Shown piece by piece: positions 1,283-54,928 of a DNA stretch of 64,000 bases (within the stretch, counting starts at the first letter, position 1; every line of letters begins with the position of its first letter). Position numbers and translations under genes: made by a program. The DNA comes from Naegleria gruberi (taxonomy: Eukaryota), in the NCBI GenBank assembly GCA_000004985.1, contig GG738885.1; one strand, written 5' to 3'. Under the pieces are notes generated by a model, which saw only the letters and a program-made list of their open reading frames with translations, had not been told where the DNA came from and did not search any database.

Positions 1283-3032
1283 TTAAGCATTCTTATGGGT
1301 GGGAGAGAGGAAAAGTTGAGGATATTCTCTGTCTGTTCTTGATTTTTTCAGGAGATTAAATTGTTCCTTTGATATTCTCCTCTCCATTAATAGACCATTC
1401 TGTGAAACTGCCTCCAAAAGGAAATCAAAATCTAACTGGAAATTATATGGAATTATTGGAAATATGCCTGCATCTCTCTTTAAAATATTAAAGAGAAATT
1501 CTCTGTCAAAGTTGTAATTGTAAAAGCGATAATGTAAAATGGATGGCATTTCATCTACCAATTCTAACACCAAAGAATTATCATTTTTCAACCTTTTAGA
1601 AATGTTTCTGTAAGAATTAGGGCTAATTTTTACAACTTGTTTGACAAAATCTCTGTCATCCTTTAATTCATAAGAGGCATACTCAAATAAATCAAACCGA
1701 TCTCCTGCATCTTTGGGAGGATTTCTTAATGCTTCCAAAATGGCTGTTCTATCAGAATGTAAATGAGGTAAATGAATTAATGCTGCTCCATTCTGTCTTA
1801 TTGAATCCATGGCAATATCCAAATCATTAAGTATATCCTTGTGAGCAAAGTGGATGGCATATCCACAATTGGATATTGCAATTCTTACAATCTCCTTATC
1901 AGCTCTCAATTCTTCATTTGACAAATTCAAGCAATTCTCCCCTCTTTTTCAGGGCTAAAACTGCCAGTTCTCTATCACTTCTCAATTCTTCTGATAAAAG
2001 TTCGTACGTTATCGGATTGAGATTAATCAACTCCCTCATAAAATCCTTATCATTGCATAGATTATCAGGTAAATTATTGAATGGAAGAGTGCCCAGGGTT
2101 ACCAAACTTTTTTTGAGAAATTCCTTGTCTCCTTGTAACTCCTTACTTAAACAATTAATGAAATATGGATTTGATTCAAGAGAAGCAATTAAAATCTCTC
2201 TGTCATTATAAAATTGCTTTACCATTTGTGAATCAATTGAGTAGCCAGTCTTACAAGCTGCTAACAGCAATTCCCTATCTTGCTTAAATTTATCAGTACT
2301 GATTTGATTCAACAACGAACCATTGATCTTGATTGCTTCATAAACTACATCTCTATCACGTTGCAAATTTGTTGGTAAATAAGGTAGAACATGAGGAAAC
2401 GCCTTCACTATTTCTATGGCTAGATCCTTATCTTTAACATCTCTGGCCTCTCTAGGATGCCTCAGAAGATACTCTTTTACAAACTCTTTATCACGAAGAA
2501 AGGCAAGAGGAATTGATCCTCCACTCCTCACAGATAACAATCCAATTTCTCTATCGCTGTCAAACATGCTTAATGAGTCCAATATTTCACCATTTGCCTG
2601 CACTAACATCTTAACCTTCTCTCTATCCTTAATAATACTTGCTGGCAAATGATCTGCAACTTTGGTATCATACTTGACCATCTCCAAGACAATTTCAAAA
2701 TCTTTGAGAAACTCCGAGCTTGCCCAGTCAAATACAGGACCAACCTTAGCAGCATGTAAGACCAATTCTCGATCCTTCTTCAATGAATCATTAAGGAATT
2801 CAGGAAAGATTGTATGTCCCTCCTCAAAGGCTCTCATCAAGACTTGCCTATCATCGTAGAATTCTATTGGGAATTTGTTTGATTCAGATGCAAAGAATTC
2901 ATCAATATGCTCCAGATACTTTTTCATACTCTTAGCTTGAAGTAGGAAGCGAGCTTGTAACTTGTCCAGTAAACAATTACTCTTCATACCACTCCAATCT
3001 TCATCCAATTGTAATACAACATTTTCCGACAT
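1283..3032 (-). CDS. DUF4116-repeat protein. The coding region is split into two overlapping ORFs (1914..3032 and 1283..1930) by an apparent 1-nt frame change; possible pseudogene or sequence indel
   Basis: Both ORFs carry repeated DRELVL/ELRxDREIV/QNGxAL modules typical of DUF4116. At the junction ...GELLEFVK* (frame A) continues as SNEELRADKEIV (frame B), exactly in repeat register. No intron fits. Confidence 0.5.
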
Positions 3033-3600
3033 TTTTTAAAAGGTAATAGAGCAAGTTCATCTTGTTAATATTAAGAAATGTTCTTGTCATTGGTAATTAT
3101 TCTTGTTGATGATGAATGATAGAGCCAATACTCTAACCATGGCAATGACTATGAAGATGACAAAAACATGATGAATATCACAGTATTTTTTGAAGTATTT
3201 TTTATTCTTATTCTCCGTCATGCTCTACATCAATGTTGAACAAGCTAGACATTATCACATCACATGCCGCAGAAGACAATTCAGACAAACCTTCTTTCCT
3301 CCCTCCTCTGTGCTCTGTGCTTCCTCAACCTCTGAATGTACTCTTCACAAGCAAATGCTTATTGTGTGAGGTACAATATTCATCTCTCCAACTCTGTTCA
3401 CTACCACACTCTCAAAAATGCCAATTCTCTTCAATATTTTCGCTGCTCTCCAGCTTGTAACCAGAGCGCAATTCATCAACAAATTCTTTGAAAAAAAATA
3501 AGCTATTCTAAAACCAATCACCGGCTCGATTTTTTTTTCATCATCACACGAATTTATTAAATAATAATCGTAGCCAACAAATAGTTGATAGTTATTTAGG

Positions 3601-5340
3601 ATGCCATCATATATTTTGTTTGAAAGTGCTTTGGGCTTTGCCATCTTTGAAAAGAAGAAGGTCGATGAAGTCGCCTACTCTAAAATTGAAAAACAAGTTG
3701 GAGAATATAGTCGCTTCAAGGATATGGTCAAATTCATTGCTTTCCAACCATTCGATACACCAGAACACGGTTTGGAAAACATGAACGCCATCTCTGAAGG
3801 TATTTTGACAGAGTTTTTACAAAACTTCTTGGAAGCTAATTTGAAAGCTAAGAATGACACCCAACTTGGTGTTTTGGAAAACAAATTGGGAGGTGCTATT
3901 CAAGAACACTTTGAAAAGAAGATTACCTGTTTCACTGATGATTCCGTATTGGGATTGTGCCGTGGTATTCGTATGCATATTCATAAATTCATTGATAACT
4001 TGAAGAAGGGTGATTTGGAAAAGGCTCAATTAGGTTTAGGTCACGCTTACAGTAGAGCTAAGGTGAAATTCAACGTTAACAAGTCCGATAACAACATTAT
4101 ACAATCTATTTCTATGCTCGATCAATTAGATAAGGATTTGAATACATTCACCATGAGATTGAAGGAATGGTACGGATGGCATTTCCCAGAACTTGTTAAG
4201 ATTGTAAAGAAGAATGATGCCTATGCTAAATGTGCACTTGCCATCAAGACTCGTTCCAGTCTTTCCAAGGATAGTGAAAAGTATGATGAATTGGTTCACC
4301 AACTTAATGATATAACAAAGGATGAAGAAGTCACTGAACAAGTTGTCAGAGCTGCTCGTTCTTCTATGGGTCAAGATGCTTCCGAATTCGACATGATGAA
4401 TATGGAATTGTTTGCCAAGAAGGTTGTCGATTTAACTGAATACAGAGCTCAATTGTTCGAATATTTGGAAACCAAGATGCACGACGTTGCTCCAAACTTG
4501 ACTTGTATTTTGGGTGAATCTGTTGGTGCTCGTTTGATTTCTAAGGCTGGTAGCTTGATGAACTTGTGTAAATGTCCTGCTTCAACTGTCCAAATTTTGG
4601 GTGCTGAAAAGGCTTTGTTTAGAGCTTTGAAGACCAGAGGTAAGACACCAAAGTATGGTTTGCTCTATCACTCTAGCTTTGTCTCAAAGGCTTCTAAGCA
4701 AAATAAGGGTAAGATTGCTAGATACTTGTCAAACAAGTGTGCTATGGCTGCTCGTATTGATGCTTTCCAAGATTTCCCAACTTCTAAATTCGGTGAATTG
4801 TTGAGAGATCAAATTGCTGAAAGATTAGAATTCTACGAAAAGAAGGCTTCATCTGGTAATGCTAAGATCACTGTCAAGCTCAAGAAGAATATTGAATTGA
4901 TGAGAGATGCTATCAAGCATGCCAAGAAGGACGAAAAGGAAGCTCCAAAGAAGGAAAAGAAGCCAGCTGAAAAGAGAAAGAGAGATGCTGTCGAAACTCC
5001 TGTTGAAGAAGAAAAGAAATCCAAGAAGGAAAAGAAGGACAAGAAGAAGGACAAGAAGGATAAGAAAGAAAAGAAGTCCAAGAAGGAAGAAGAAGTCATG
5101 GAAGATGAAAAGCCAGCCGAAGAAGAAAAGAAGTCCAAGAAGGAAAAGAAGGATAAGAAGAAGTCCAAGAAGGAAGAAGAAGTAGAAGAACCTGTTGCTG
5201 AAGAATCCAAGAAGGATAAGAAGAAGAAGGACAAGAAGGAAAAGAAGGAAAAGAAGGAAGAATCGGTAAAGGAAGAAAAAGAAGAAAAGAAAGAAAAGAA
5301 GGAAAAGAAAGATAAGAAAAAAGATAAGAAAAAGCATTAA
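3601..5340 (+). CDS. NOP56: Nucleolar protein Nop56 (box C/D snoRNP core protein, NOP5/NOP56 family), single exon
   Basis: N-terminus MPSYILFESALGFAIF... and FQPFDTPEHGLENMNAISEGIL match the Nop56 N-terminal domain (human NOP56: FSPFKSAQEALENANAVSEGIL). Central NOSIC/Nop domain present (WYGWHFPEL, ILGAEKALFRALKT, KYGLLYHSS). C-terminal KKD/KKE tail present. Confidence 0.85.
   Translation: MPSYILFESALGFAIFEKKKVDEVAYSKIEKQVGEYSRFKDMVKFIAFQPFDTPEHGLENMNAISEGILTEFLQNFLEANLKAKNDTQLGVLENKLGGAIQEHFEKKITCFTDDSVLGLCRGIRMHIHKFIDNLKKGDLEKAQLGLGHAYSRAKVKFNVNKSDNNIIQSISMLDQLDKDLNTFTMRLKEWYGWHFPELVKIVKKNDAYAKCALAIKTRSSLSKDSEKYDELVHQLNDITKDEEVTEQVVRAARSSMGQDASEFDMMNMELFAKKVVDLTEYRAQLFEYLETKMHDVAPNLTCILGESVGARLISKAGSLMNLCKCPASTVQILGAEKALFRALKTRGKTPKYGLLYHSSFVSKASKQNKGKIARYLSNKCAMAARIDAFQDFPTSKFGELLRDQIAERLEFYEKKASSGNAKITVKLKKNIELMRDAIKHAKKDEKEAPKKEKKPAEKRKRDAVETPVEEEKKSKKEKKDKKKDKKDKKEKKSKKEEEVMEDEKPAEEEKKSKKEKKDKKKSKKEEEVEEPVAEESKKDKKKKDKKEKKEKKEESVKEEKEEKKEKKEKKDKKKDKKKH
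4900..5340 (+). repeat. Low-complexity purine-rich (AAG/GAA)n-like coding repeat encoding the KKDKK/KKEKK tail of Nop56
   Basis: Runs of aagaag/gaaaag; it generates spurious antisense and alternate-frame ORFs (4907..5185+, 4833..5234-, 4849..5517-). Confidence 0.6.
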
Positions 5341-19993: not shown

Positions 19994-21173
19994 ATGGAGA
20001 AAGCAAAAAAGAAAAAACTAGTGTCGCTCCAACGAGAAGAAATATTTTCCGATGATATTTGTTTTGAAATAATTTCCATGATTGATAATTCGTGGTTTAT
20101 TTTGAATAATTGTTCCTTGATTTCAAAACAATTCTTTAATGTGATCAAGGAACGTTCAAAACTTTTTATTAAATTTAAAAAGAAATTTACAGAGAAAAGA
20201 ATTAAATTATTCATGAAGAGTCAATTTATGAATAGTATTGTTAATGTTAAATTTTCTAAAAGGTTGTTTGATTCTATAGAAAAACCCACATTCATAACTG
20301 AAATGAAACAATTAACTTCACTTGATATTAGTAACAATCGAATTGGTTATGTAACAGCCGAATCAATAATAAGTGAAATGAAACAGTTAACATCATTTAA
20401 TATTAGTGGAAATAGCATTGATGATGAAACAGCCAAATCAATAACTGAAATGAAACAATTAACTTCACTTGATATTAGTAACAATGGAATTGGTGATGAA
20501 ACAGCCGAATCAATAATAAGTGAAATGAAACAATTAACATCATTTAATATTGGTGGAAATATCATTGGTGATGAAGGAGCCAAATCAATAAGTGAAATGA
20601 AACAATTAACATCACTTAGTGTTAATAACAGTGGAATTGGTGTAGCAGGAGCCAAATTTATAAGTGAAATGAAACAACTAACATTACTTGATATTGGTGA
20701 AAATTCAAGTGGTGTAGCAGGAGCCAAATTTATAAGTGAAATGAAACAATTAACATCACTTAATATTGGTGGAAATAGCGTTGGTGTAGAAGGAATCAAA
20801 TATATAAGTGAAATGAAACAATTAACATCACTTACTATTTATAACAGTGGAATTATTGAAATTAACACTACTTGATATTGGTAGAAATGATATTGGTGAT
20901 GAAGGAATCAAATCAATAATTGAAATGAAACAATTAACTAAACTTGATATTAGTGGAAATAGCATTGGTGTAGAAGGAGTAAAATCAATACGAAAACTGA
21001 AACAATTAATATCACTTGATATATGCTACAACGAAATTGGTGTAGAAGGAGCCAAATCAATACGTAAAATGAAACAATTAACATCACTTGCTATTCGTGA
21101 AAATGGTATTCGTGATGAAGGAGCCAAATTTATATTTGGAATGAAGCAATTAAAATCACTTGATATTCAGTAG
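19994..21173 (+). CDS. F-box-like/leucine-rich-repeat (RNI-type) protein encoded by about 12 tandem 72-bp (24-aa) repeat units; frame broken near 20850-20880 (ORFs 19994..20875 and 20847..21173)
   Basis: N-terminus EIFSDDICFEIISMIDNSWFILNNCSLISKQFF is F-box-like. Repeats of EMKQLTSLDISNNGIGDETAESIIS. One unit lost about 40 nt, shifting the frame. Confidence 0.55.
20290..21170. repeat. Tandem repeat array, period 72 bp, about 12 copies, highly homogenised (LRR coding repeats)
   Basis: Recurring gaaatgaaacaattaacatcacttgatattagt...ggaattggtgatgaaacagccgaatcaataataagt units. Confidence 0.7.
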
Positions 21174-23230: not shown

Positions 23231-24841
23231 ATGGCATTGGTTATAGTGGATCCAGATGGAAAATCACCTTCCTATATAAATGATATTCGATCATCTCAAC
23301 AGCATCAACAACGGGAGCAGGTTTCCACCGATCATTTATTGATTCATCATCAACATTTATCCAACTCTGCATTAGATGCATCACCAACACAATGTGAGCT
23401 ATCATGCAACCACCCCATCTCTCGTACAATTCCAATGCATCATAATGTTACTATGGGAGCCTCAACTTTGTTAACAACACACTCAGTCGGCGCTCAAGAC
23501 AAATGCCCAGAGAAGGATATATCAAGAATGAATAGCTCCATAAATACGTATGACCTTAATCAATACTCACCTAGACCAAATATGCCCAGTGAACCCTCGC
23601 GCTCTGATGGCGAATTATCTAAAAACGAAGGCACGCAACTCTCAATCTCTGTTCATGGTCACTCTCAATTGTTTACTGTTGACAAAGTGGGGCAATATGT
23701 CCAACAAGTTTATAGCCAAGACCCTAAAAACAGTGAGGATTGCCTTCCAAAATCAGATACTCGAATCTGCACGTTCTCCAAATATCAAAGTAATTTCCAA
23801 TATTACGCAAAAAAAGAAAGTGAACATTATCGCAATCAATCAATGAACTGGGTTCATTCAAACAATCACCTCATGATGATGGATAATAATAAGGGTTCAC
23901 AATTAAACCCATTACAGAAAGATCAACCATCACACTCTTCAACACAGCAGCAGCAATTGTCCCAACATCATCACATAATTGACTCTACTCAGAAAAACAC
24001 CCTTAATTCTCCACAGCATTGCATCATGAACCAAGAGAATAAGTCCATGCCCACTACAATGCCAAATAATACTTCTAGTAGTAGTAGTAGGAGCAGTAAC
24101 ATGGTAAATCATTACATGTCTCCATCAAAGAATCACATCTTAACTCTTAATAATACTATTCCTCTCACAACTACCTCATCATGTACATCAACTAAAATCA
24201 TATCTACCTCTTCACTCTCTGAAACAAATCAACAAATCACATGTCCTACAAATCATCATGTTCTCCAGCAACACATGTACCCATCCTCTCAACATGCCTT
24301 AACAACATTGGGATCCTGCTCTGGTAGCTCATGTAACAACAGCTTGAGTGGAGGGGAAGAGAATAGTACCACAACAACCAGTGAAAAGGTTCAAAGCTCA
24401 CAAACCAAAACAAGCAATAGCAGGTCGAGAGCAACCAAAACTCCTCGTAAAAAGTACCGAAGAAGTCTATGTATTGAGGAGAGAGATTTACTTAGAGTAT
24501 TGCATTTACCACAAACTCAGGCATGTAGCTCGTTGGGGTGTAGTCTTTCAACTTTAAAGAGGAGATTTTACGAACTCAAAGATAAGATTGGTATTGATAA
24601 ATGGCCACAATTCTACAATGATATTAGACATTTAGAGGCCTTTCCACACATTTATCCAATGTCTTTGGAGTTTGTAATGAACGATGAACAAGCCAATGAA
24701 AAATATCTATCAACAGAATGTATGCATGCATTATCAAAAGCATTTGAATGTAGTACATTGGCAAAACCATCACAGAAGGGATATGCCAAATTGGTTTTTG
24801 CTGACCCTTCACATGGCATTTCTAAAAAGAAAAAGAAGTGA
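23231..24841 (+). CDS. Low-complexity S/T/Q/N/H-rich protein with a C-terminal RWP-RK-like putative DNA-binding domain
   Basis: C-terminal IEERDLLRVLHLPQTQACSSLGCSLSTLKRRFYELKDKIGIDKWP resembles the RWP-RK domain (LxxYFxLPIxxAAxxLGVxxTxLKRxCRxxGIxRWP). The assignment is tentative. Confidence 0.4.
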   Translation: MALVIVDPDGKSPSYINDIRSSQQHQQREQVSTDHLLIHHQHLSNSALDASPTQCELSCNHPISRTIPMHHNVTMGASTLLTTHSVGAQDKCPEKDISRMNSSINTYDLNQYSPRPNMPSEPSRSDGELSKNEGTQLSISVHGHSQLFTVDKVGQYVQQVYSQDPKNSEDCLPKSDTRICTFSKYQSNFQYYAKKESEHYRNQSMNWVHSNNHLMMMDNNKGSQLNPLQKDQPSHSSTQQQQLSQHHHIIDSTQKNTLNSPQHCIMNQENKSMPTTMPNNTSSSSSRSSNMVNHYMSPSKNHILTLNNTIPLTTTSSCTSTKIISTSSLSETNQQITCPTNHHVLQQHMYPSSQHALTTLGSCSGSSCNNSLSGGEENSTTTTSEKVQSSQTKTSNSRSRATKTPRKKYRRSLCIEERDLLRVLHLPQTQACSSLGCSLSTLKRRFYELKDKIGIDKWPQFYNDIRHLEAFPHIYPMSLEFVMNDEQANEKYLSTECMHALSKAFECSTLAKPSQKGYAKLVFADPSHGISKKKKK

Positions 24842-39912: not shown

Positions 39913-41793
39913 ATGATTAAGAATAGCATCTTTATTGCACTCTTTGTGTGTATATATTTAACATGTACAGTCTATTCACAAGGAGCTCCTTGTGTGTTCA
40001 ATACACCATTGCCAATTAATCCAGATTATTATTGGACAAGTCTTGCCTCCTTCCGAGCATGCTTGCCAAATATTCCTGCTGACAAGGATATGATTGCAAA
40101 CACCCTTGATATTGCTGTTGCTACTTCTAATGGTTATTCTTATGAATATATGGTTCAAAATAGCACATACTCTGGATCTGCATATTCTATTTCTGTAAAT
40201 TTGAAGAATAGAATTCAACAAATCAGAAACAAGAATTATGATTTCGACTATCAATTCCACAAAGAATTGATGGGTCTCTTCTTCAGTCTCTATGATGCTC
40301 ACACAATTTACATGCCTCCAAATCCATACAAGAATTCTTACTTGGTATTCCCATTCGATTTGACTAGCTCAATTACTAATGTTGGACAAGTTATTAGTGT
40401 AAAGGCTGACAATCGTCTCTATAGTGCCATTACTGGTTCTAATTCCGGTGCTGCTGGTAAAACTATTAGAACTATCAATGGAGTCAAGCCAAAGGACTTT
40501 TTAGATAGCATTGCTAATACTATTTTCATGTCAAAGGAAGCTGCTTCCAGATTCAATGAAGTTATCAAGATGCAAGAAATGTCTCTTGGTGCTTTGATTA
40601 TGCCAGAATTTGATTCATTGAACTATGTTTTCAGTGATGGTTCCTCTCTCAATCTCCCATTGGTTGTTTTGCTCTCTCAACAAATTAATGGTCCAAAAGA
40701 TTTCAAGAATTTAATGGCTGCTCAACCTTCCAAGTCAAGAATTGAAGTCAGAGTTAACAATAATCAAAAACGTGCACCAACTATGGCTGTTGATCCAAGA
40801 ATGGTCATTCCAGAATTGTCAATTCCAAAGATTGTTTACAAGAAAACTGGTTTTGAAAGCAAGCTTAGAGGAATGGCTGCTGGTAATCTCAAACTCCTTT
40901 ACTCTGCTTCTGATAAGTCTATCGCATACTTGTACCACACAACTCGTAAGATTTCAGTTTTCAAGATTGAATCATTTGCTCCAAATTATCCATACAGTCA
41001 ATATCCATGGGATGAATTCAAGAGTATTGTTGAAAGAGGAGTTGCTCATGCTCAATCTGTTGGTGTCAAGTCACTCGTTCTTGATTTACAAGGAAATGGT
41101 GGTGGATATGTTTGCTTATCGATTGCTTTGGCCAGACTTTTGATTGCCGAATATTCTGATCTGTCAAAACTCTATCAACCTTTTGAATTCAAGAAAAATC
41201 CACTTGTTGATTCTGCTCGTCCATTCTTCATTCAACCAAACTCAATGCTTAATGCTACAAATCTTCAACTATTGCCAAATGCTGATTTCTATGAGAGAGG
41301 TGTAACAAAGAAACTTGGTGGAGTTATTGCTAGTTACTCTCAACAATTCTATCTTGATTGTGCCAGTGAAGGTAACTTCTTCTTCAAGCCAGCCACTCAT
41401 TACTTTAACAAGTTTATTATCTTGACTGATGGTTTGTGCGGATCTAGTTGTTCTCAATTTGCTTCCAAATTGATTTATAATAAGAAGGCATTGGCTGCTA
41501 ATGTTGGTGGTTATGATTCTACTTTTGAAACAACTGCATTCAATGGTGGTGCTGTTCTTCACTATGATGACCTTGTCAAAAGAGGAGCTCCAATTCCAAG
41601 ATTAACCAAATCCAATGCTGTATTTACTTTCAATGAATTCCACATGTACTTGAATGCACAACAACCAATTCCAAGAGAATTCCAAATATTGAGAGGTGAT
41701 ATCAAGATTAACTCTTGGGACTTTGATGATTTGGAAGGATTGGTTGATACTGTTGCTCCTCAATTCGACAAGATGACTCCACTCAATCAATAA
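39913..41793 (+). CDS. Secreted peptidase S41 (tail-specific/C-terminal processing protease)-like protein
   Basis: Signal peptide MIKNSIFIALFVCIYLTCTVYS. S41-like blocks LVLDLQGNGGGYVCLSIALARLL and ILTDGLCGSSCSQFASKL (compare CtpA VLVDRGTASASEI). Confidence 0.55.
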   Translation: MIKNSIFIALFVCIYLTCTVYSQGAPCVFNTPLPINPDYYWTSLASFRACLPNIPADKDMIANTLDIAVATSNGYSYEYMVQNSTYSGSAYSISVNLKNRIQQIRNKNYDFDYQFHKELMGLFFSLYDAHTIYMPPNPYKNSYLVFPFDLTSSITNVGQVISVKADNRLYSAITGSNSGAAGKTIRTINGVKPKDFLDSIANTIFMSKEAASRFNEVIKMQEMSLGALIMPEFDSLNYVFSDGSSLNLPLVVLLSQQINGPKDFKNLMAAQPSKSRIEVRVNNNQKRAPTMAVDPRMVIPELSIPKIVYKKTGFESKLRGMAAGNLKLLYSASDKSIAYLYHTTRKISVFKIESFAPNYPYSQYPWDEFKSIVERGVAHAQSVGVKSLVLDLQGNGGGYVCLSIALARLLIAEYSDLSKLYQPFEFKKNPLVDSARPFFIQPNSMLNATNLQLLPNADFYERGVTKKLGGVIASYSQQFYLDCASEGNFFFKPATHYFNKFIILTDGLCGSSCSQFASKLIYNKKALAANVGGYDSTFETTAFNGGAVLHYDDLVKRGAPIPRLTKSNAVFTFNEFHMYLNAQQPIPREFQILRGDIKINSWDFDDLEGLVDTVAPQFDKMTPLNQ

Positions 41794-42616: not shown

Positions 42617-44853
42617 ATGTCGCTTCTCCTTATCCTTCTTATCACCCTTTGCATTCTCTTATTTACCACTTTATATATTAGATTTAGAAACTCTGTGCCC
42701 AGGTCTAATAGGAAAGTTTGGAATAGGAAAGATACATCTTCATTGGAAAATACTCTTCAAAAAATTATTGGAAAGAATATGACATCATACATTGTAGATA
42801 CATCGTCATCACAGAGGAAAAAGTCTTGGTCTCCGTATATTCCTCCTTCTTATAAGTTTAATAATAATTCATCAAATGTTGTTTTACAACAAAATGAAGT
42901 GACTCAACAACAAGAAGGAATGGCCAATAATAATAATATCAATGTTGAATATTCAAATAATAACAATAATATTTCAACATTTAATATTCAACAAAATAAT
43001 CAACAGAACTTGAATGTTAGCACCATTCCAATAGCATCACAATCTACAATTCTTTCAATTCACCCAAATACTTTAAATTCCGAGACCGACCTGACAAGCA
43101 CAATTTATAGAAAACCTACAGTAGACCGTTTGGACAAGAAACCAATTTATAAGAGCCCACAATTAAAGAAAAAACTATCTACTCCAAACAGCTCTGCCTC
43201 TAAGAAGAAAGTTATTTATTTCAATAATTCAAAATTTTTGGAGGGGGTGGGAGTTTCTCCAATTCTTCCAGATAAGAAAATTAGAGAAGAACCTATTCAC
43301 TTACCAAACTCGAGTTTTATGAACCAATCTACAATTGTATTGGAACCTATTACAGAAATGGAAAATAAGCCACAAGAACCTATTCAAGTTGTTAACACTA
43401 GTGAGGGAGAAACTACAGGAATGTTAGCAGATGCATCCATGATATCTGTCGGTGATAATAAGAAGTCGCCAAAAGGTATTTTAAGAAAGAGAGATCCCCT
43501 AGGAAATTTTGCAAATCAATCTATGAATTTGTCTACTCAGTTAAATGAGAGTGACATTCTAAATTCTAGCATTTTGAAGAAGAAAAAGGTGGAATTTGAT
43601 CAAGCAGTGAAAAATCAAAATTTAAAGAGGTCAGACCATTAGGATTTGAAAGGGCTGCTCCTCCACCTTCTGAAACTAGCTTTTCTAGAGAGGCTCAAAA
43701 AAGAACCAAAACAAGTGATATTGTCATGTCCAATACTACACCTACTTTAGTATCTCCTAAGCCTAAACCATTAATATTACCAACCACTCCTCCTTCTTCT
43801 AATATTGATGACTCTTTAATGATGGACAATTCAATGATTAGAGAATCAGAGCTGGATAAGAATGATAGTATCATTTTGGATTGTATAATTTCTGAAAAGA
43901 AACCTAAGAAAAAGTTTGGTAGAGTTGGTTTCTCCACACCAAGTACATTTAGAAATCAAAAGATTTTGAGATACAGTGAGGATATTGCACAAAGAAAAGA
44001 GTTGGCTTTCTATTTATTAAAGGGTGAACCATCTCCAGAAAAAAAGGTTTCCACACAAAATGCCAACAAGGCTGATGATAGCAATTTGGGATCTTCCTTT
44101 AACTTGTCAAGTTTGGCAAAGAGAAGCACAGATACTATTTCAGAAGGGCAACCACCAAAACCTACAACCTCTTCCTCAGAAACTTCTTCTACTACTGCTG
44201 GTTTTACTTTCACTGCAGGAGCAGTTTCTTCTTCCACTGAAAATAAGACTGAAGAAAAATCTAATCCTCCAACATTTGTACTTCCAACAACCAACACTTC
44301 CAAAAGAGAGGAAAGACCATCCCAAAAACCAGCCACAATCGAAACCCCAGTAATAGCACCTGACACAAACAAACAGACCCCACAATTGGATCTTTCTGCT
44401 TTCAAACAACCGGAACCTAAACCAATTGACAATGCTCAACCAACAGTAAAGCTAGGAACAGAAACCAAATCAACAGGTCCTACTGCTACGTTAAACATTC
44501 CAAGTGTTGGATCACATCAAGATAATGTAAATAAGGAAAATGAATCAGATTCCAATCCGTTTGCATCTATCATAATTCCTTCCAGTTCATCATCATCCAC
44601 AGATAATCCACCTGCTACTGAGACAACCAATCCATTTGCAAATCTCAAAGTTGCAACTCCAACAGAACAGAAAAAGAATGTCTTTAATCCATTTGCTAAT
44701 ACAACCAGCTCAAGCATGTTTGGAACACCATCTTCAAGAAATACCTTCAACAAAACAACACCATCAAAACCTGCTGATTCAGTTTCAGATTTTGCAAAGA
44801 TGGATCCCTCAATCTTCCAACGAGAAGCTCTTTCATTTGGATATCAAAAATAA
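42617..44853 (+). CDS. S/T/N/P-rich protein with N-terminal signal-anchor TM, multiple NPF motifs and FG-like dipeptides; two ORFs (to 43642, and 43726..44853) probably joined by a short intron (donor about 43607 or 43630; acceptor TTTTCTAGAG about 43688-43692)
   Basis: MSLLLILLITLCILLFTTLYI TM. NPFASI, NPFANL, NPFANT (EH-domain-binding motif). The second ORF's frame is open upstream to 43600 and overlaps the end of the first ORF. Confidence 0.4.
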
Positions 44854-45049
44854 ACTTTCATCCAAAAGCTTTCCCTTCTAGCTGGGGTTAATCAAAATAA
44901 AAGACAGATCTGATGAACTGGAACTTTCTACTTTGTGATGTTGCTAAATCGGGTTACCTATGATCTTCGAATATGGAACACCTCTAACTTAATAGACAAC
45001 AGGCCAAATCACAACCCACACATCTCTTTTCTCAAAAGAAGAAAACAAA

Positions 45050-45751
45050 ATGACAATTCTGTTGCTGCAACTTGCTGTTACATTGATGACATTGGCTTTT
45101 GTGAAGGGAATTAGTATTCTCAAGCTTGTTTCCTTCTTGATCTGTTGGAATGTGACTGGTCTCAATATGCTCAAGTTCTCAAACACTGAGTGGGTCTTCT
45201 GTGTGCTTGTATGTGCTTGCTTCACTGTGTTAAATTACAACTCTTTAAGTATTGGCATATTCAAGTTTGCCAAAGAAGATATTTTACTGCAACCCTATTG
45301 GGAATTTATCATGTGGCCATTCTACACTTTACACACTCTTCGAGTGATAAAAGCCATTCTCCCATCAAAGGATGAAGAAGCTGATAAGCCTTCCATATTT
45401 TCAGAAACCAATCGTTCAGACTTGCTTTTCAACCTTGTTGCTGCTTTGCTCATGTCTTGTCTGTTTGGTGTAATCAGAGATTCATCTACTCTTTTCATTA
45501 CCTCATCGTTGTTGCTCTCACTTATCTTGATCAAGTTCCACTCTGTACATGATGTGGCACATGTTGTTTACATGCAATTATTAGGTTACCTCATCGAAAT
45601 CACTGGTGTATTGAGTGGAGAGTGGCATTATCCATCGAACCCAATTGGAAGAATTCCTCTCTGGTTTTTGACAATGTGGGGAAGTGTTGGATTCTTCTCT
45701 TATAAATTGGTTTATCCAATTATTGCAGAATTAACAAAACCAAAGAAGTGA
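45050..45751 (+). CDS. Hypothetical multi-pass membrane protein (about 6 TM), 233 aa
   Basis: Hydrophobicity pattern only. Confidence 0.45.
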   Translation: MTILLLQLAVTLMTLAFVKGISILKLVSFLICWNVTGLNMLKFSNTEWVFCVLVCACFTVLNYNSLSIGIFKFAKEDILLQPYWEFIMWPFYTLHTLRVIKAILPSKDEEADKPSIFSETNRSDLLFNLVAALLMSCLFGVIRDSSTLFITSSLLLSLILIKFHSVHDVAHVVYMQLLGYLIEITGVLSGEWHYPSNPIGRIPLWFLTMWGSVGFFSYKLVYPIIAELTKPKK

Positions 45752-46225
45752 TTAAAATCTTAGCTTCCTTTATCCTTTGAACAACTTGTCCACTTTGTTG
45801 AAGACACTTTGATTTGGGTAAGGTTAAATAAGTGAATTTCTGGTCTTGTGGAAGAAAATAGAAAACAGAATAGTGATCAATTACCTTATACTTACTTGAA
45901 AAGTAAATCAGAAAAGGAAATTCTCAAGATGGAAAATGGGTTGGAAAAAAGAGTTATGGAAAGGGAAGAGAAGAAACTTGAAAGAATCAAAGATGTTAAA
46001 AACCAATTGCAAAATCAATAAATTCAACAATAATAGACATTCATTGCTCATGCCTTTCAAATGTAGAATGCTACCTTTCTAATAGCAAGGTCCTTGATGA
46101 CAATTTCCACCTATTTGCTCTTTGCAAAATGTGAGAGGTTCCATTTAATAATGTTTATTTGGTTGCTAGTGGTGATATGGAAGTTGTGACTTTCTCAGTT
46201 GGGAACCAACATCTTTTAAGGAGAA

Positions 46226-46257
46226 GCAAAGTACCTTACCTATTTAAGGTACTTTGC
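46226..46257. repeat. Perfect 13-bp inverted repeat (hairpin) with 6-nt loop, followed by a T-rich run on the + strand
   Basis: GCAAAGTACCTTA cctatt TAAGGTACTTTGC then ttttatttcc. Confidence 0.6.
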
Positions 46258-46432
46258 TTTTATTTCCATTCCCTAACAATCCAATGTTTCCTTATTTTTT
46301 AGAGCACCATCTCAAAACATTCACATATGGAAGGGTAAACAGATGCTGATAGAAATAAATATTTATTATATTACAATTTAAACCTCAATCTCTTGGTAAC
46401 AACAATTTGGTCCAGTATCATGTGACAGGCAT

Positions 46433-48193
46433 CTAGTCTGATTTTTTGATAGGTAGTTGCAGATATGAGGCGTGTGATTTGCCTGTGTGAATAATGTGCT
46501 TTCCTTTGTTTTCTGGAATATAAGCAGGTGTTCCTGGCATAATTGCTCCCAAATCGTTTTTAGAGCTAACCACCAATCGCAACTGTTCGCCAGGATAGAA
46601 GACCATACCAATTGGGAAAAGATCAATTTCGATTTCTGCAATCTCTCCCGCTTGAAGTTTCTCTACACGATCAAAGCTGTGGGCTGGAACAATATTGGTT
46701 GATAGTTTTTCGTCCAAATGACGTGCCGAAACACGCAGACGTCCATTTGATCCCTTGTATCTTAATACAGACCCACCGTGCTCAGTGAGATCTTGCATCA
46801 TAGCACCTTGATTAGGCACGATAAATTGTTGCAGATGATTGCCATGAACGTCCAGTTTTTGAACGAGAATAAACAAATCCATATCGTCTGCTCCCTCAGC
46901 TTCAACCCAAAGATGCACTTTAGGATAGCCGACCATAACAGTTTCTGTGTCGAAACGTACAATGAAAGAAGCAAGTCCCGGATCAGATTCAGTGTCATAG
47001 ATAACCTTTGCTTCTTGTGGAGGAATCTCAGTGGTAAGCTTACGGAATCTGCCATCAAGGTAATACTTTTGATTTGTAACATCATTCGGTGGAAATTCGC
47101 TTGCTGGTTGATTAATAAGGTCGCCACCTTCAAAGTCGTGTATTGCATAACGAACACGAGGTGTTTGTTCCCAACCATTGTTCTCTCCTTTGAGATAGTG
47201 ATTGAAAAAACGGCGTAAGTCTTCCATATTCTCATCTGTGTAATAATCGGGCCACTCCTGGGTATTATGGATACGAAGCCATTTTTCTGTAGATGCCATT
47301 CCTCGCCAAGCTCTGAATGTACCAGCTGTATGTAGAGTGTTGGAATAACTTGCAACAACGTAGGCGGGTACAGTAATTTTGTCTAAGCGTGCAGTCTTAT
47401 CTTCCCAAATAGCATTATTAGCCAAAGGATAACTAATTGCCTCTTCATAAACATCTTCACGCATCGTGTTTTTAGCACTGACGTGATTGACTTGTAGACG
47501 TTTTGTAAAGTTAAGATCTGGCATCCCACCACGCATAGATAGATCACGATAAGCATCGCTTAAACCTTCCCATGGGTTGATTGCAGCCAGATGAGGTGGT
47601 TGCTCGGCAGCAGTAAACCACTGTGAGATGGCTAGATAAGATGTTCCACTCATCGCTACTTTGCTGTTGCACCATTCCTGAATGGCTAGCCATTCGATTA
47701 AATCGGCACAGTCTCTTCCTTCCTGAGTTCCAATCATATTAATGTCGCCTTCTGAATGTGCAATTCCTCGTGCATCAGGATTGCAGACGGCATAGCCCTG
47801 AGCACACCAATGGGCAGGATCTGGTCCCTCGAACTTGGCTAATCCAGAGAGCATACCGTTATTAAGACCCAACATATTGAAAAGGTTTGTAGTTCTTGGG
47901 GCCGATCCTCCACTTTTGCCATAGGGACTCCATGCAATGATAACTGGGACTTTTTCTGTGACAACTGGTCGAAAAACATCGACATAAATTGTTTTCCCGT
48001 CACGCAAAGTTACTGCAACATCCTTTTCTAAAACTATATCTACTGGTAGAGTACGAAACATTGGGGCAAGCTGATAGCCTTTTGGCAATACCCGTGTGCC
48101 TGGTTCAAATTTACTCAATAGCCCATGTTCTTTTCCGTCATCAATGTAGTTGTAAGCAGGTTCGAAAATTTGAATTTCTTTCAGAGTTGTCAT
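46433..48193 (-). CDS. CocE/NonD-family alpha/beta hydrolase (peptidase S15, Xaa-Pro dipeptidyl-peptidase-like), 586 aa, single exon
   Basis: N-terminal alpha/beta-hydrolase region with GxSYxG nucleophile motif (AMSGTSYLAISQW). Domain order and length typical of CocE/NonD. Coding GC noticeably higher than most neighbours. Confidence 0.75.
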   Translation of the reverse strand: MTTLKEIQIFEPAYNYIDDGKEHGLLSKFEPGTRVLPKGYQLAPMFRTLPVDIVLEKDVAVTLRDGKTIYVDVFRPVVTEKVPVIIAWSPYGKSGGSAPRTTNLFNMLGLNNGMLSGLAKFEGPDPAHWCAQGYAVCNPDARGIAHSEGDINMIGTQEGRDCADLIEWLAIQEWCNSKVAMSGTSYLAISQWFTAAEQPPHLAAINPWEGLSDAYRDLSMRGGMPDLNFTKRLQVNHVSAKNTMREDVYEEAISYPLANNAIWEDKTARLDKITVPAYVVASYSNTLHTAGTFRAWRGMASTEKWLRIHNTQEWPDYYTDENMEDLRRFFNHYLKGENNGWEQTPRVRYAIHDFEGGDLINQPASEFPPNDVTNQKYYLDGRFRKLTTEIPPQEAKVIYDTESDPGLASFIVRFDTETVMVGYPKVHLWVEAEGADDMDLFILVQKLDVHGNHLQQFIVPNQGAMMQDLTEHGGSVLRYKGSNGRLRVSARHLDEKLSTNIVPAHSFDRVEKLQAGEIAEIEIDLFPIGMVFYPGEQLRLVVSSKNDLGAIMPGTPAYIPENKGKHIIHTGKSHASYLQLPIKKSD

Positions 48194-48297
48194 ATTGTCT
48201 CAATTTAATTTTTTTGCTTAAAGTTTCAAACTCTCAAATACAATCAAATCTTTTAAAGGTACTGGCAAACGAAAGTTCACGTCGCTTAACAAAATAG

Positions 48298-48311
48298 CCG
48301 CCATATGGCGG
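48298..48311. promoter_or_regulatory. GC-rich perfect 14-bp palindrome CCGCCATATGGCGG about 105 bp upstream of the CocE/NonD start codon; candidate transcription-factor site
   Basis: Isolated GC-rich palindrome in an otherwise AT-rich divergent promoter region. Confidence 0.2.
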
Positions 48312-48912
48312 AGGTGTTGTTTAAACATTCTCAAGTGCGTTAGTGGGTCGCATGTTTAGAGAGACAAGAGATTCACATCAGTACACTTAGTAATTGAATG
48401 ATTGAAGTGAAATCTCTTTTCTAAACATGAAGTGTTTCTTTTAAAGTCAGATAACAGAACTAATTTTTGGATTATCTTCCTGCCAAATAATGCTCCATCA
48501 AACACTGACTGAGTCCAACAATGTTTGATATTTGGAATTCTGTTCATGCAAACATTTAAGAAAAACATTTAAGAAAGCTGGATCTGTGTTCTTGTTTCGA
48601 ACACTTGCGGTATTATTGAAATGTGTTCGAAATCTTGTCTTTGGTTTTAGAAGTCTTGTTTTACCTTCATTCACCTGAATTTCTGATTTGTTGATTCATT
48701 CTTGCCAATGTTCTCCTCTTATTTAATCGAATCGAAGCATGGAGGCAATAAGAGTATTCAATAGTAATAGAATAAATACGGCAGGCTTTTAATTTATTTT
48801 TAGCAGCAATAGTTAAGAACAAATTTTTTCGTTGAGGATTGGCTAACAATTATGGCGCCCTTGTCTACCTAAAAAAGCTGTCCAAAAATAACTTTAAAAA
48901 AATATCATCGCC

Positions 48913-49554
48913 ATGATTAGAGGAGACAATTTGGTGCCTACCTCTTGGAGTGATGAAGAACGGTTTGTTGATGATCTGTTGAACACTTCTTCTTCATCAT
49001 CAATTTGTACACAAGCAGCAACGACATCAACAGTTGCTAATTCATCTTCTTCTAATAGCTTTTCATCATCCGAAATTATAGTCATCAGTGACGATGAAGA
49101 TTTACAAGAAGTGGATCGTTTTCCAACCGATTATCATGTGCAGACTCGATCTTCTAAGAAAAAGTCAACTCCCAAAGGTATAAAAAAGAACAAGAGGGAG
49201 ACTAGAAAGTCATCTAAAATTCAAAATGCTGAAAATATGAAGCATCCAGAAGATATAATTCCTCTGGATGTATTCAGACAATTTGTTAATTCTTCCAAGG
49301 ATGATTTACTTCACCAAGTACTTGGTGAACAGTTGGAAAGTCTCGAATCATCATTTAATAATAGTGAGAAGAAGCTTAAAAAGAAGGCCAGGAAGAAGTT
49401 CAACCCTCCAACCACAGTGGAATTTGATGAGGAGGCAATTCGAGTATTGAGAGATGGAGTTTCCTATTTACTAATTGAAAAATTGAAAAAAACAAAAGAA
49501 ATTGCAAATGCCAAAAATTTATCCCAAGCTCTTTCCCTAGCTATGGATTTGTAG
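48913..49554 (+). CDS. Hypothetical S-rich/basic protein (213 aa)
   Basis: Intact ORF. SSS tracts, IVISDDEDLQEV (SIM-like), KKK tracts. Confidence 0.35.
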   Translation: MIRGDNLVPTSWSDEERFVDDLLNTSSSSSICTQAATTSTVANSSSSNSFSSSEIIVISDDEDLQEVDRFPTDYHVQTRSSKKKSTPKGIKKNKRETRKSSKIQNAENMKHPEDIIPLDVFRQFVNSSKDDLLHQVLGEQLESLESSFNNSEKKLKKKARKKFNPPTTVEFDEEAIRVLRDGVSYLLIEKLKKTKEIANAKNLSQALSLAMDL

Positions 49555-53011: not shown

Positions 53012-54928
53012 ATGATTAAAAAGCTCGACCAAGCAACAGAGTTTCATTTGAGAAGTGGTGTTCAGTTGCCGGATATTCAGACAATTTTAGGGAAATTGAT
53101 CGATAATGGTGAGTTTGGTTATTTAATATATTCCTTCTGAATTATGTTTGTAAAGCAATTGAGGCTAAAAGTACTTTTATTCGTATTAATATCAAATCGA
53201 AGCCTTCTTTTTCCATTGAGGTTAAAGATGATGGAGTAGGAATTGATTTCTCTGGATTGAAAACAATCGGAGAGTGTAGAAATGGTAAGTAATTAAGAGT
53301 ATTACAATATATAAAACCAATGAAATATAGTTTCTTCTAAAACTGATTTGAAAGGAGAGTCTCTTCATTCAATAATTACAGCCTGCTCTACTGTCAAGAT
53401 TACCTCCAAAGGGAATAATTATCCTCTCTGTTTCTCTTCAATATTTGTAAATGGTCAAAGGAAAAGCCTTGAACAAGCTCCCATCACAACTTTCCAAAGA
53501 GGAGGAACCTCTGTAATGGTTGAAGGAATTTTCAGTAATTATCCAGTGAGGAAGAAACAATTAGAAGAGCATCCTGATCAATACTTGAGATCAATTGTAG
53601 ACTTTATAGAGGTAGAAAGCTTCAAATTGGTTGATATTCAAATTGCATTGGTTTGTGATGGAATGTCAATCTTTGATTTGTCCAACTCGGAAAAGGAACA
53701 AGCCTTACATCAAAGAATAAGGAAACGATATGAAGAGTTGACGAGAAGGAGAAACTTATTTCCAATAGAAGACATCAAGTTTGGAGAATTGCAAGTCAGT
53801 GGCATTGTTGATAAGAATGACATAACTTCAAAGATCAAGATTGTAATTGTAAACAATAGGGTTTATCCAATAGAAACATTAATTAAGAAAGGAGAAGAGT
53901 TTGGAAGTTTTGTACTCTGTGCTTCTATATTGAAAGCTCCACCACATAACTCTGAAATGATTAACTCTGAGCTTCGCAATGCTCTGTTCTATAGTAAGCT
54001 ACATAATGAATCAAGCACTATTCAAATATACAATGAAGAATCAGAACAGAGAAAAGAGTTTGCACCACTATCTTCTTCCCTTTATGATAAGATGTACAAT
54101 AGAAAACCAAGTGAAAACAAAATTAAGGGTGACCGTTTAAATATTAACCAACTAATTAACAAATCGAAAGAGATTAATGGCATCAAAACCATTCCAAAAC
54201 CTCAACCCAAGTTTATGAGCTCTCCAAAAAAGAAGAAGCTGTTGAATATTTCTCTTGACAAGAACCAAATGAAACAATTGAAATTTATCAATCAATGGGA
54301 GAAGAAGTTTATTCTCACATCCTTAAAGACAGAGAACAGTCTCCTACTTATTGCTATTGATCAACATGCAGCAGATGAGAGAGTTCGCATGGAGATGATT
54401 CAACAAAATATATTAGATTATGCGCAGCAGTCTCCTGGCCCATGGGTACAACCACTCTCGAAGCAAACACTAAACTCCACCAAGGTTGAGGGATCGAAAA
54501 CCATATCCTTATTGAAACAGAACAAAGACAAATTATCCAAATGGTATTGGAATTTTATTATCATTCATGAAGAGTCAACAAACGCATTTTTAAAACTCAA
54601 TACTATACCTTGTTTATTCGTCGAGAAAGACTCTATTGAGCTTGGTTTTGAATCTATGATGTCATTTTTATCTGAACTGGAATTTGATTCAACCTGTTGG
54701 TATCCAAAACGAGTTTTAGAACTCATTCAATCCAAAGCATGCCGTGGAGCCATTATGTTTGGAGATGTGCTATCCACTGAGAAATGTAATCAACTGTTAC
54801 AACAATTATCAAATTGTCAACTGCCTTTCCAGTGTGCTCATGGAAGACCTAGTAAGTAGTTCCAACTTTGCAATTTTTTAAACAACCATTTCAAAATAGC
54901 AACTGGAATCCTGACTTCGATCAATTAG
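53012..54928 (+). CDS. MutL homolog of the PMS2/MLH3 (endonuclease-motif) type. Exons about 53012-53108, 53157-53285, 53355(or 53331)-54851, with a probable terminal micro-exon 54900-54928
   Basis: GHKL N-terminus MIKKLDQATEFHLRSGVQLPDIQTILGKLIDN|AIEAKSTFIRINIK...EVKDDGVGI...|...KGESLHSI. C-terminal DQHAADERVRME (DQHA(x)2E(x)4E endonuclease motif), RVLELIQSKACRGAIMFGDVLS, and CAHGRP (compare PMS2 CPHGRPT) continuing ...TTGILTSIN* after a 48-nt intron. Confidence 0.7.

Follow-up and report, generated by a model that had tools for sequence, protein, structure and literature searches.

A CocE/NonD hydrolase gene of probable bacterial origin and Bacteroidota type in the nuclear genome of Naegleria gruberi

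The gene and its protein family

How did a gene for a CocE/NonD-family (peptidase S15) hydrolase come to stand at positions 46433-48193 of a 64,000-nucleotide stretch of Naegleria gruberi DNA (assembly GCA_000004985.1, contig GG738885.1; this whole stretch is called the window below)? The original prediction, made from the sequence by itself, took it for a candidate horizontal gene transfer (HGT) from bacteria. The comparisons reported here agree with that proposal: the nearest neighbours of the protein are bacterial, a neighbour-joining (NJ) tree places it in a clade with 94% bootstrap, and at 11 of the 12 alignment columns taken as diagnostic it carries the Bacteroidota residue. We consider it highly likely, on this sequence evidence, that a single bacterial gene was transferred into the nuclear genome of the N. 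gruberi lineage, where it appears to have been kept functional. The most probable source is a Bacteroidota-like bacterium, plausibly one taken as prey. The gene and its two domains are the following:

46433-48193, minus strand: complete intronless coding sequence (CDS), 586 amino acids (aa) plus TAG, of a CocE/NonD-family serine hydrolase (NAEGRDRAFT_58783 / XP_002674303 / EFC41559), from the listing of open reading frames (ORFs), exact-sequence look-up, Pfam and NCBIfam.
47264-48001, minus strand: alpha/beta-hydrolase catalytic domain, Peptidase_S15, residues 65-310 (PF02129, 133.5 bits, E = 1.4e-38).
46457-47179, minus strand: C-terminal beta-sandwich domain, PepX_C, residues 339-579 (PF08530, 125.6 bits).

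The reading frame runs uninterrupted from ATG to TAG, and NAEGRDRAFT_58783 is annotated as a hypothetical protein. Both domains scored above their Pfam cut-offs (23 bits for Peptidase_S15, PF02129, and 22.5 bits for PepX_C, PF08530), and the NCBIfam model TIGR00976 (CocE_NonD) gave 224.3 bits for the 586-aa protein against a cut-off of 66.3, so that the family assignment of the original prediction stands. The models of PepX proper (Xaa-Pro dipeptidyl-peptidase) were tried and rejected: NF003780, NF003781 and NF003782 gave 45, 26 and 32 bits, below cut-offs of 642, 881 and 711. The UniProt name 'Xaa-Pro dipeptidyl-peptidase C-terminal domain-containing protein' refers to the domain only and does not denote a true PepX. 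As bacterial homologues are colinear with the Naegleria ORF across 98-100% of its length, with no interruption, we regard the CDS as free of introns, in keeping with the earlier description of an intronless copy of 586 aa. This is weak evidence for HGT, since the N. gruberi genome paper reportedly found the majority of the genes of this species to be intron-free. The N-terminus is hydrophilic, has no signal peptide and coincides with the start of the bacterial homologues, which suggests a cytosolic protein.

The best solved relative is a CocE/NonD hydrolase of Staphylococcus aureus (structures 3ib3/3iii), a full-length homologue with the same two-domain layout. Residues 37-558 of 3ib3 align with residues 52-582 of the Naegleria protein (E = 2e-90 with a single sequence, 6e-122 with a profile) and the Ser and His positions match, but it is far less similar than the Bacteroidota homologues. 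The cocaine esterase CocE of Rhodococcus sp. MB1 (1ju3 and others) belongs to the same family and aligns in patches only (E about 1e-18 to 1e-24), namely the N-terminal strand and C-terminal jelly-roll segments, with the region of the helical insert left unaligned. There is no reason to expect cocaine to be a substrate of the Naegleria hydrolase. No report on the function of 3ib3, or of the subfamily to which the Naegleria enzyme belongs, turned up in a literature search.

Relationship to bacterial homologues

The protein was searched against 5.8 billion sequences, including NCBI nr and EukProt, and the results below refer to the best 120 matches. These showed 69-83% identity over 95-100% of the length. 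Only two were not bacterial, a gregarine protein and the Naegleria copy; no further protein from Naegleria or any other heterolobosean was among them. The nearest homologues (80-83% aa identity) were bacterial, and those that could be named belonged mostly to Bacteroidota. All named matches among the best 120 with at least 75% identity came from Bacteroidota (Bacteroides reticulotermitis, Fibrivirga algicola, Mucilaginibacter gilvus, Tannerella, Sunxiuqinia and Carboxylicivirga), with the exception of one Sedimentisphaerales metagenome-assembled genome (MAG). The contig of the top match (P0002, 83%) carries SusC/SusD genes, a hallmark of Bacteroidota. Below about 73% the named matches came from Chloroflexota, Actinomycetota, Myxococcota, Pseudomonadota and Acidobacteriota, and Lactobacillaceae stood at 62-63%. 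A scan of GTDB species genomes yielded Sphingobacteriales (80%), Bacteroides (79%), Tannerella (78%) and Chryseolinea (78%). The subfamily is strongly conserved, with at least 70% identity across bacterial phyla.

In an NJ tree of 130 sequences (578 columns, Kimura distances, 200 bootstraps), two Naegleria sequences, that of the window and that of a metagenome contig described below (L001), paired at 100%. The clade that encloses them obtained 94% bootstrap, and its named members were Bacteroidota, three Lactobacillaceae on long branches, the Sedimentisphaerales MAG and the gregarine Gregarina niphandrodes. The protein phylogeny that had been proposed as a check of the HGT reading thus nested Naegleria inside a Bacteroidota-type clade, not inside a eukaryotic one. 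Independently of the tree method, we identified alignment columns that separate named Bacteroidota from other named phyla. A stricter first criterion gave one column only, and a relaxed criterion, giving 12 columns, was used; Naegleria has the Bacteroidota residue at 11 of them and the alternative residue at none (0/12).

Base composition, codon usage and age of the transfer

The CDS has a GC content of 42.9%, compared with a mean of 35.0% (sd 2.2) for the 29 other ORFs of the window (z = 3.6). No other 1.76-kb stretch of the window is as GC-rich, and only counting windows that overlap the CDS exceed 40%. The GC excess on which the original prediction drew is therefore real, but the quoted range of 43-55% per 60 nt is somewhat too high, as we found 33-55% with a median of 42%. 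Likewise, two of the four codons said to be frequent are so (GGC with 11 and GCC with 12 in-frame occurrences), while CGG (1) and CCG (2) are rare. By codon position, GC is 0.56 at the first (GC1), 0.39 at the second (GC2) and 0.334 at the third (GC3), the host mean for GC3 being 0.288 (z = 0.9). Bacterial homologues from genomes of 37-71% GC have GC1 and GC2 values equal to those of the Naegleria gene, so the excess largely reflects amino-acid composition. GC content was accordingly rejected as a sign of foreignness, since the excess lies in codon positions 1 and 2 and is common to homologues from genomes across this range.

Codon usage, another check named in the original prediction, set the gene apart from its host: its synonymous codon choice is the most atypical of the 30 window ORFs (z = -8.0). 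Arginine is encoded by CGT in 57% and by AGA in 18% of cases (host 10% and 63%), and glycine by GGC in 25% (host 5%). Codon tables of low-GC Bacteroidota fitted the gene marginally better (-1.09 to -1.12 log-likelihood per codon) than that of the host (-1.14). The next most atypical ORFs in the window are an RWP-RK ORF (23231-24841, plus strand, z = -5.2) and a MutL_C ORF (53348-54859, plus strand, z = -5.1). The proportion of synonymous differences (pS) to every bacterial homologue was 0.72-0.82. As synonymous sites are saturated, the transfer must be old, or at least the divergence from every donor sampled. Amelioration has gone far without being complete, with GC3 host-like and codon choice still atypical.

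Catalytic residues and probable retention of function

Four codons bear on whether the enzyme is intact:

47639-47641, minus strand: Ser185, predicted nucleophile in G-T-S-Y-L-A, aligned with CocE Ser117 (HMMER) and invariant in 22/22 homologues.
47267-47269, minus strand: His309, predicted catalytic histidine, invariant in alignment A1, kept in 3ib3 and within 2 columns of CocE His287.
47339-47341, minus strand: Asn285, at the canonical catalytic Asp position (CocE D259) in a MAFFT alignment with CocE and 3ib3, invariant in alignment A1.
47201-47203, minus strand: Asn331 (AAT), Asp in 127/127 bacterial homologues and Asn in three eukaryotic copies only.

The nucleophile elbow G183-T-S185-Y-L-A aligns with G-V-S117-Y-L-G of CocE and fits the pattern G-x-S-Y-x-G/A. 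In the CocE sequence used for the MAFFT alignment, residues 117, 259 and 287 are S, D and H. Asn285 is a property of the subfamily and not damage in Naegleria, because all bacterial members carry Asn there; 3ib3 has Thr at this position. The acid of the triad may be supplied by another residue, for example the invariant Asp316. The position of residue 331 is Asp in 3ib3 and CocE as well, and the three copies with Asn are the two of Naegleria and that of Gregarina niphandrodes. Among 127 bacterial homologues, 172 columns are at least 98% invariant, and 171 of these are retained in Naegleria.

The second Naegleria copy is encoded on L001 (ERZ929261, 4.5 kb), a contig of a related Naegleria assembled independently from a metagenome. 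It corresponds to window positions 43907-48377 and carries a 99%-identical protein together with both downstream neighbours. The two coding sequences are 99.0% identical in nucleotides and differ by 10 synonymous and 7 non-synonymous changes, which gives a ratio of non-synonymous to synonymous rates (dN/dS) of 0.20 and a binomial P of 0.001 against neutrality. On these 17 substitutions, the hydrolase appears to be under purifying selection and to have been kept functional.

The alternative that survives best, although we think it improbable, is that the gene was transferred and has since become a functionless relic, unexpressed or catalytically dead. The Asn at the canonical Asp position, the replacement of an otherwise invariant Asp by Asn331 and a codon usage ill-adapted to the host would all fit a relic. 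Asn285 is no lesion, however, being common to all bacterial members, and Asn331 occurs also in a distant bacterial homologue (L028, below). Against a relic stand, in addition, the selection estimate, the retained invariant columns and a 586-codon ORF that is intact in two strains and, from the synonymous saturation relative to bacteria, long-lived.

Donor lineage and the published record

The HGT status of the Naegleria hydrolase is already published and is not new. In a phylogenomic screen of N. gruberi for lateral gene transfer (LGT), XP_002674303 is listed in the sheet 'LGT-derived genes' of Additional file 2, where Lactobacillus hilgardii ATCC 8290 is named both as its nearest neighbour and as the putative donor (Clarke et al., 2013; Genome Biol 14:R11, PMC4053784). 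No other gene with an accession number near XP_002674303 appears in that list. The gene identifier was not found in the main text of the literature searched, and the supplements of three Naegleria comparative-genomics studies do not list the hydrolase.

A real transfer from Lactobacillales, as published, would agree with the presence of Lactobacillaceae inside the same 94% clade. We nevertheless judge this donor very unlikely. The Lactobacillaceae proteins are 62-63% identical to that of Naegleria, as against 80-83% for Bacteroidota, they sit on long branches away from it, and of the 12 diagnostic columns they show the Bacteroidota state at 2, Naegleria at 11. The Lactobacillus donor is thus contradicted by current data, which point to a gene of Bacteroidota type; the databases available in 2013 probably restricted the earlier assignment.

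A closer donor was sought in L022, a bacterial contig of 41% GC with UxaC, LacI and SPOR genes, on which the hydrolase (1684-2241) is truncated to a C-terminal fragment of 185 aa. It was rejected as the nearest donor, since its 90% identity over 163 aa is confined to the conserved C-terminal domain and the nucleotides are 78% identical.

Several hundred bacterial genes have been reported in N. gruberi, and the locus is one clean, well-documented and ordinary case among them. What we add to the record is the Bacteroidota-type donor, the stable integration in a second Naegleria strain and the apparently separate acquisition in an apicomplexan. These points help curation and offer a test case for HGT pipelines, and they leave the general view unchanged.

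The Gregarina copy and residue 331

The one other eukaryotic protein among the matches, P0058 of Gregarina niphandrodes, is a 596-aa intronless copy on the 156-kb scaffold KK211485, where it adjoins the gene for V-ATPase G. The gene (10001-11791 of L027) sits among eukaryotic genes and has a GC3 of 0.62 in a genome of 52% GC. It is 74% identical to the Naegleria copy and 78% identical to Bacteroidales-type sequences.

Could the hydrolase then be an ancient eukaryotic gene, inherited vertically and lost from most eukaryotes? An intronless copy of 74% identity on a eukaryotic scaffold would fit such a history, as would an Asn331 that both eukaryotic lineages have and the 127 bacterial sequences do not. 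Both eukaryotic proteins are closer to bacterial ones (83% for Naegleria, 78% for Gregarina) than to each other, though, and both are nested in the Bacteroidota-type clade, where they were grouped together in 0 of 200 bootstraps; no further eukaryotic sequences occur among the best 120 matches. We regard vertical inheritance as highly improbable, and the Gregarina gene looks like an independent acquisition.

A scan of Joint Genome Institute (JGI) metagenomes with a degenerate DNA pattern, aimed at an Asn331 donor, returned only L028, a distant bacterial homologue of 42% identity. The gene (1908-3878) encodes a secreted-type homologue with a twin-arginine-like leader, stands beside MarR and TetR regulators and has the motif FFNHYLKG. 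Asn is thus tolerated at this position in the wider family, because L028 has the motif naturally. The probability that Asn331 arose in both eukaryotic lineages by chance coincidence was estimated at roughly 1-2%, and the residue may represent a convergent change in the two acquisitions. A fuller scenario is that one Bacteroidota-type, regulator-coupled hydrolase was captured twice, by the bacterivore Naegleria and separately by Gregarina, a parasite of insect guts, and that both changed Asp331 to Asn. We hold this to be a speculative and rather unlikely possibility; if true, it would be a case of recurrent adaptive capture of a detoxifying or digestive enzyme that was convergently adjusted to the eukaryotic cell.

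Integration in the Naegleria genome

The amoebozoan frame in which the original prediction had placed the host was mistaken. Exact-sequence look-up matched five window proteins to N. gruberi NEG-M entries, all from a single scaffold of 362,555 bp, and N. gruberi is a heterolobosean (Discoba), a free-living amoeboflagellate. The neighbours in the window are eukaryotic and include genes for Nop56/58, EGF-repeat and VIT-domain proteins, an NHL-repeat protein kinase, RWP-RK, an equilibrative nucleoside transporter, an ERGIC-53-type lectin, a WD40 protein, a MutL-C protein, ZPR1 and eIF2D. Of the two genes cited earlier as highly expressed neighbours, Nop56 is present (Nop56/58 at 3601-5340), and RPS17 was not found in the window by a conserved-motif search.

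Between the window and L001, the synonymous divergence (dS) of the hydrolase was 0.026, and that of the two native flanking genes 0.014 and 0.033. Because the hydrolase has diverged like its native neighbours, it was already at this locus in the common ancestor of both copies. Compared with 25 bacterial loci, the nucleotide sequence is similar only as far as the CDS ends, with no trace of the AraC/TetR genes or of the downstream neighbours found in bacteria. The gene is stably integrated and is conserved in a second Naegleria strain.

That the sequence is bacterial contamination or a chimeric assembly, not truly part of the Naegleria genome, might be suspected from its very high identity to bacterial proteins and its standing as the most GC-rich stretch of the window, but this has next to no probability and is effectively refuted by the eukaryotic genes on either side of it on a 362-kb scaffold, the independent contig L001 that joins it to the same two neighbours, the exact stop of bacterial similarity at the CDS ends without bacterial neighbour genes, the host-like GC3 and the dS that matches the flanking genes.

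The convergent neighbour (45050-45751, plus strand) encodes a multi-pass membrane protein with a sub-threshold match to DUF817 (21.5 against 25.9 bits). Its version on L001 is longer (269 aa) and has no Pfam match.

Bacterial gene context and proposed role

In Bacteroidota the hydrolase gene is preceded, on the same strand and about 150 nt from its start, by a gene for an AraC-family (HTH_18) regulator of about 290 aa. We observed this arrangement at seven Bacteroidota loci (Fibrivirga, Tannerella, the P0002 contig, L003, L004, L007 and L009). The AraC-linked hydrolases of Fibrivirga algicola (P0015), Mucilaginibacter gilvus (P0028), Tannerella sp. (P0038) and the metagenomic P0002 are 78-83% identical to the Naegleria protein, have their start and stop at the same positions (98-100% of the length), lack a signal peptide and share with it all but one of the near-invariant residues. 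They differ from it in that Naegleria has Asn331 for Asp and AT-shifted third codon positions, and in that an AraC-type gene stands upstream where Naegleria has host intergenic DNA. The AraC regulator at about 150 nt was recorded on L003, L004, L007, L009, L023, L024 and L026. In other phyla (Acidocella, Herpetosiphonaceae, Psychrobacter, Streptosporangium and Cystobacter) the gene immediately upstream encodes a TetR-family regulator instead, mostly on the opposite strand and so divergent. Apart from the AraC or TetR regulator, no recurring partner gene was found at the bacterial hydrolase loci examined. At the Naegleria locus, the coding sequence alone was kept, the adjacent bacterial regulator was lost and host intergenic DNA lies ahead of the gene.

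Inducible hydrolysis of a particular small molecule is usually laid out in this way, as a lone enzyme controlled by a regulator that senses a ligand. Since the bacterial gene context consists of a single enzyme and a ligand-sensing regulator, we propose a role as a small-molecule esterase or amidase. In the proposed mechanism, Ser185 would attack an ester or amide bond of the small molecule, assisted by His309. In bacteria the gene would form, with its AraC or TetR regulator, a stand-alone unit for the inducible breakdown or detoxification of a specific compound, and such a self-sufficient single-enzyme unit could work after transfer. The amoeba probably uses the enzyme in the same way, by analogy with the bacteria: as a cytosolic serine esterase or amidase, the protein would cleave a compound with an ester or amide bond that the amoeba encounters when it feeds on bacteria. 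The substrate of this highly conserved subfamily would be a more interesting result than the HGT itself.

Several points weigh against reading the locus as a functional gene acquired from a Bacteroidota-like bacterium. The 94% clade is not purely Bacteroidota, as it holds the Lactobacillaceae, Gregarina and the Sedimentisphaerales MAG, whose sequence lies on a 3.7-kb contig; moreover, the placement of Naegleria within it obtained at most 27% bootstrap, and only distances were used to build the tree. Expression-linked bias could account for part of the atypical codon usage, and the Nop56/58 gene is likewise raised in CGT (32%). The dN/dS estimate is based on 17 substitutions only. The position of CocE Asp259 is Asn throughout the subfamily, so that a full triad is uncertain, and the substrate and physiological role are drawn purely by inference from bacterial gene context.

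Flanking regions

The regions on both sides of the gene, and two sequence elements within them, are as follows:

48194-48912, no strand: 719-bp intergenic region shared with a divergent ORF (48913-49554), the presumed host-derived promoter and 5' untranslated region (UTR), without bacterial similarity and with 33.2% GC.
48298-48311, no strand: perfect 14-bp palindrome CCGCCATATGGCGG, 105-118 nt upstream of the ATG, unique in the window and present in L001.
45752-46432, no strand: 3' intergenic region shared with the convergent gene 45050-45751, containing the 3' UTR, indel-rich between strains.
46224-46259, no strand: perfect 15-bp inverted repeat with a 6-nt loop (arms 46224-46238 and 46245-46259), its near end 174 nt past the stop codon.

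The upstream region had been described as an AT-rich promoter region, but its 33.2% GC equals the genome average. The GC palindrome noted in it was confirmed as perfect and unique: CCGCCATATGGCGG is the sole site in the window within 2 mismatches, and matches occurred in 0 of 100 shuffles. Its presence in L001 is uninformative, because the whole proximal stretch of 184 nt upstream of the ATG is 99.5% identical there. The palindrome is possibly a protein-binding site. We rejected it as a recurring motif, as the half-site ATGGCGG occurs nowhere else in the window.

Downstream, the 3' intergenic region is 82.7% identical to that of L001 with indels included. The strong hairpin that had been reported about 180 bp past the stop is real and perfect (fold energy -28.6 kcal/mol, z = -4.65), but it is not conserved: in L001 (about 2130-2200, against 46224-46300 of the window) unrelated sequence stands in place of the arm nearer the stop codon, so that this arm exists in the window strain only. 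The hairpin looks like a strain-specific local inverted duplication. Its absence from L001, and the end of bacterial similarity at the stop codon, led us to reject it as a conserved 3' element or as a relic of a bacterial terminator; it scores as terminator-like on the plus strand, which is meaningless in a eukaryote. An Rfam scan of 45.5-49.2 kb gave no matches.

Other observations in the window

Two further loci drew our attention. A 626-aa ORF on the plus strand (39913-41793) has a borderline match to Peptidase_S41 (25.1 against a cut-off of 24 bits) and a weak match to a CPAF-like PDZ domain. Tail-specific proteases are largely bacterial, and this ORF may be another foreign gene. At 19994-21173 (plus strand), tandem leucine-rich-type repeats of about 24 aa (…EMKQLTSLDISNN.IG…) extend across two adjacent ORFs, which may belong to a single gene interrupted by a frameshift or an intron.

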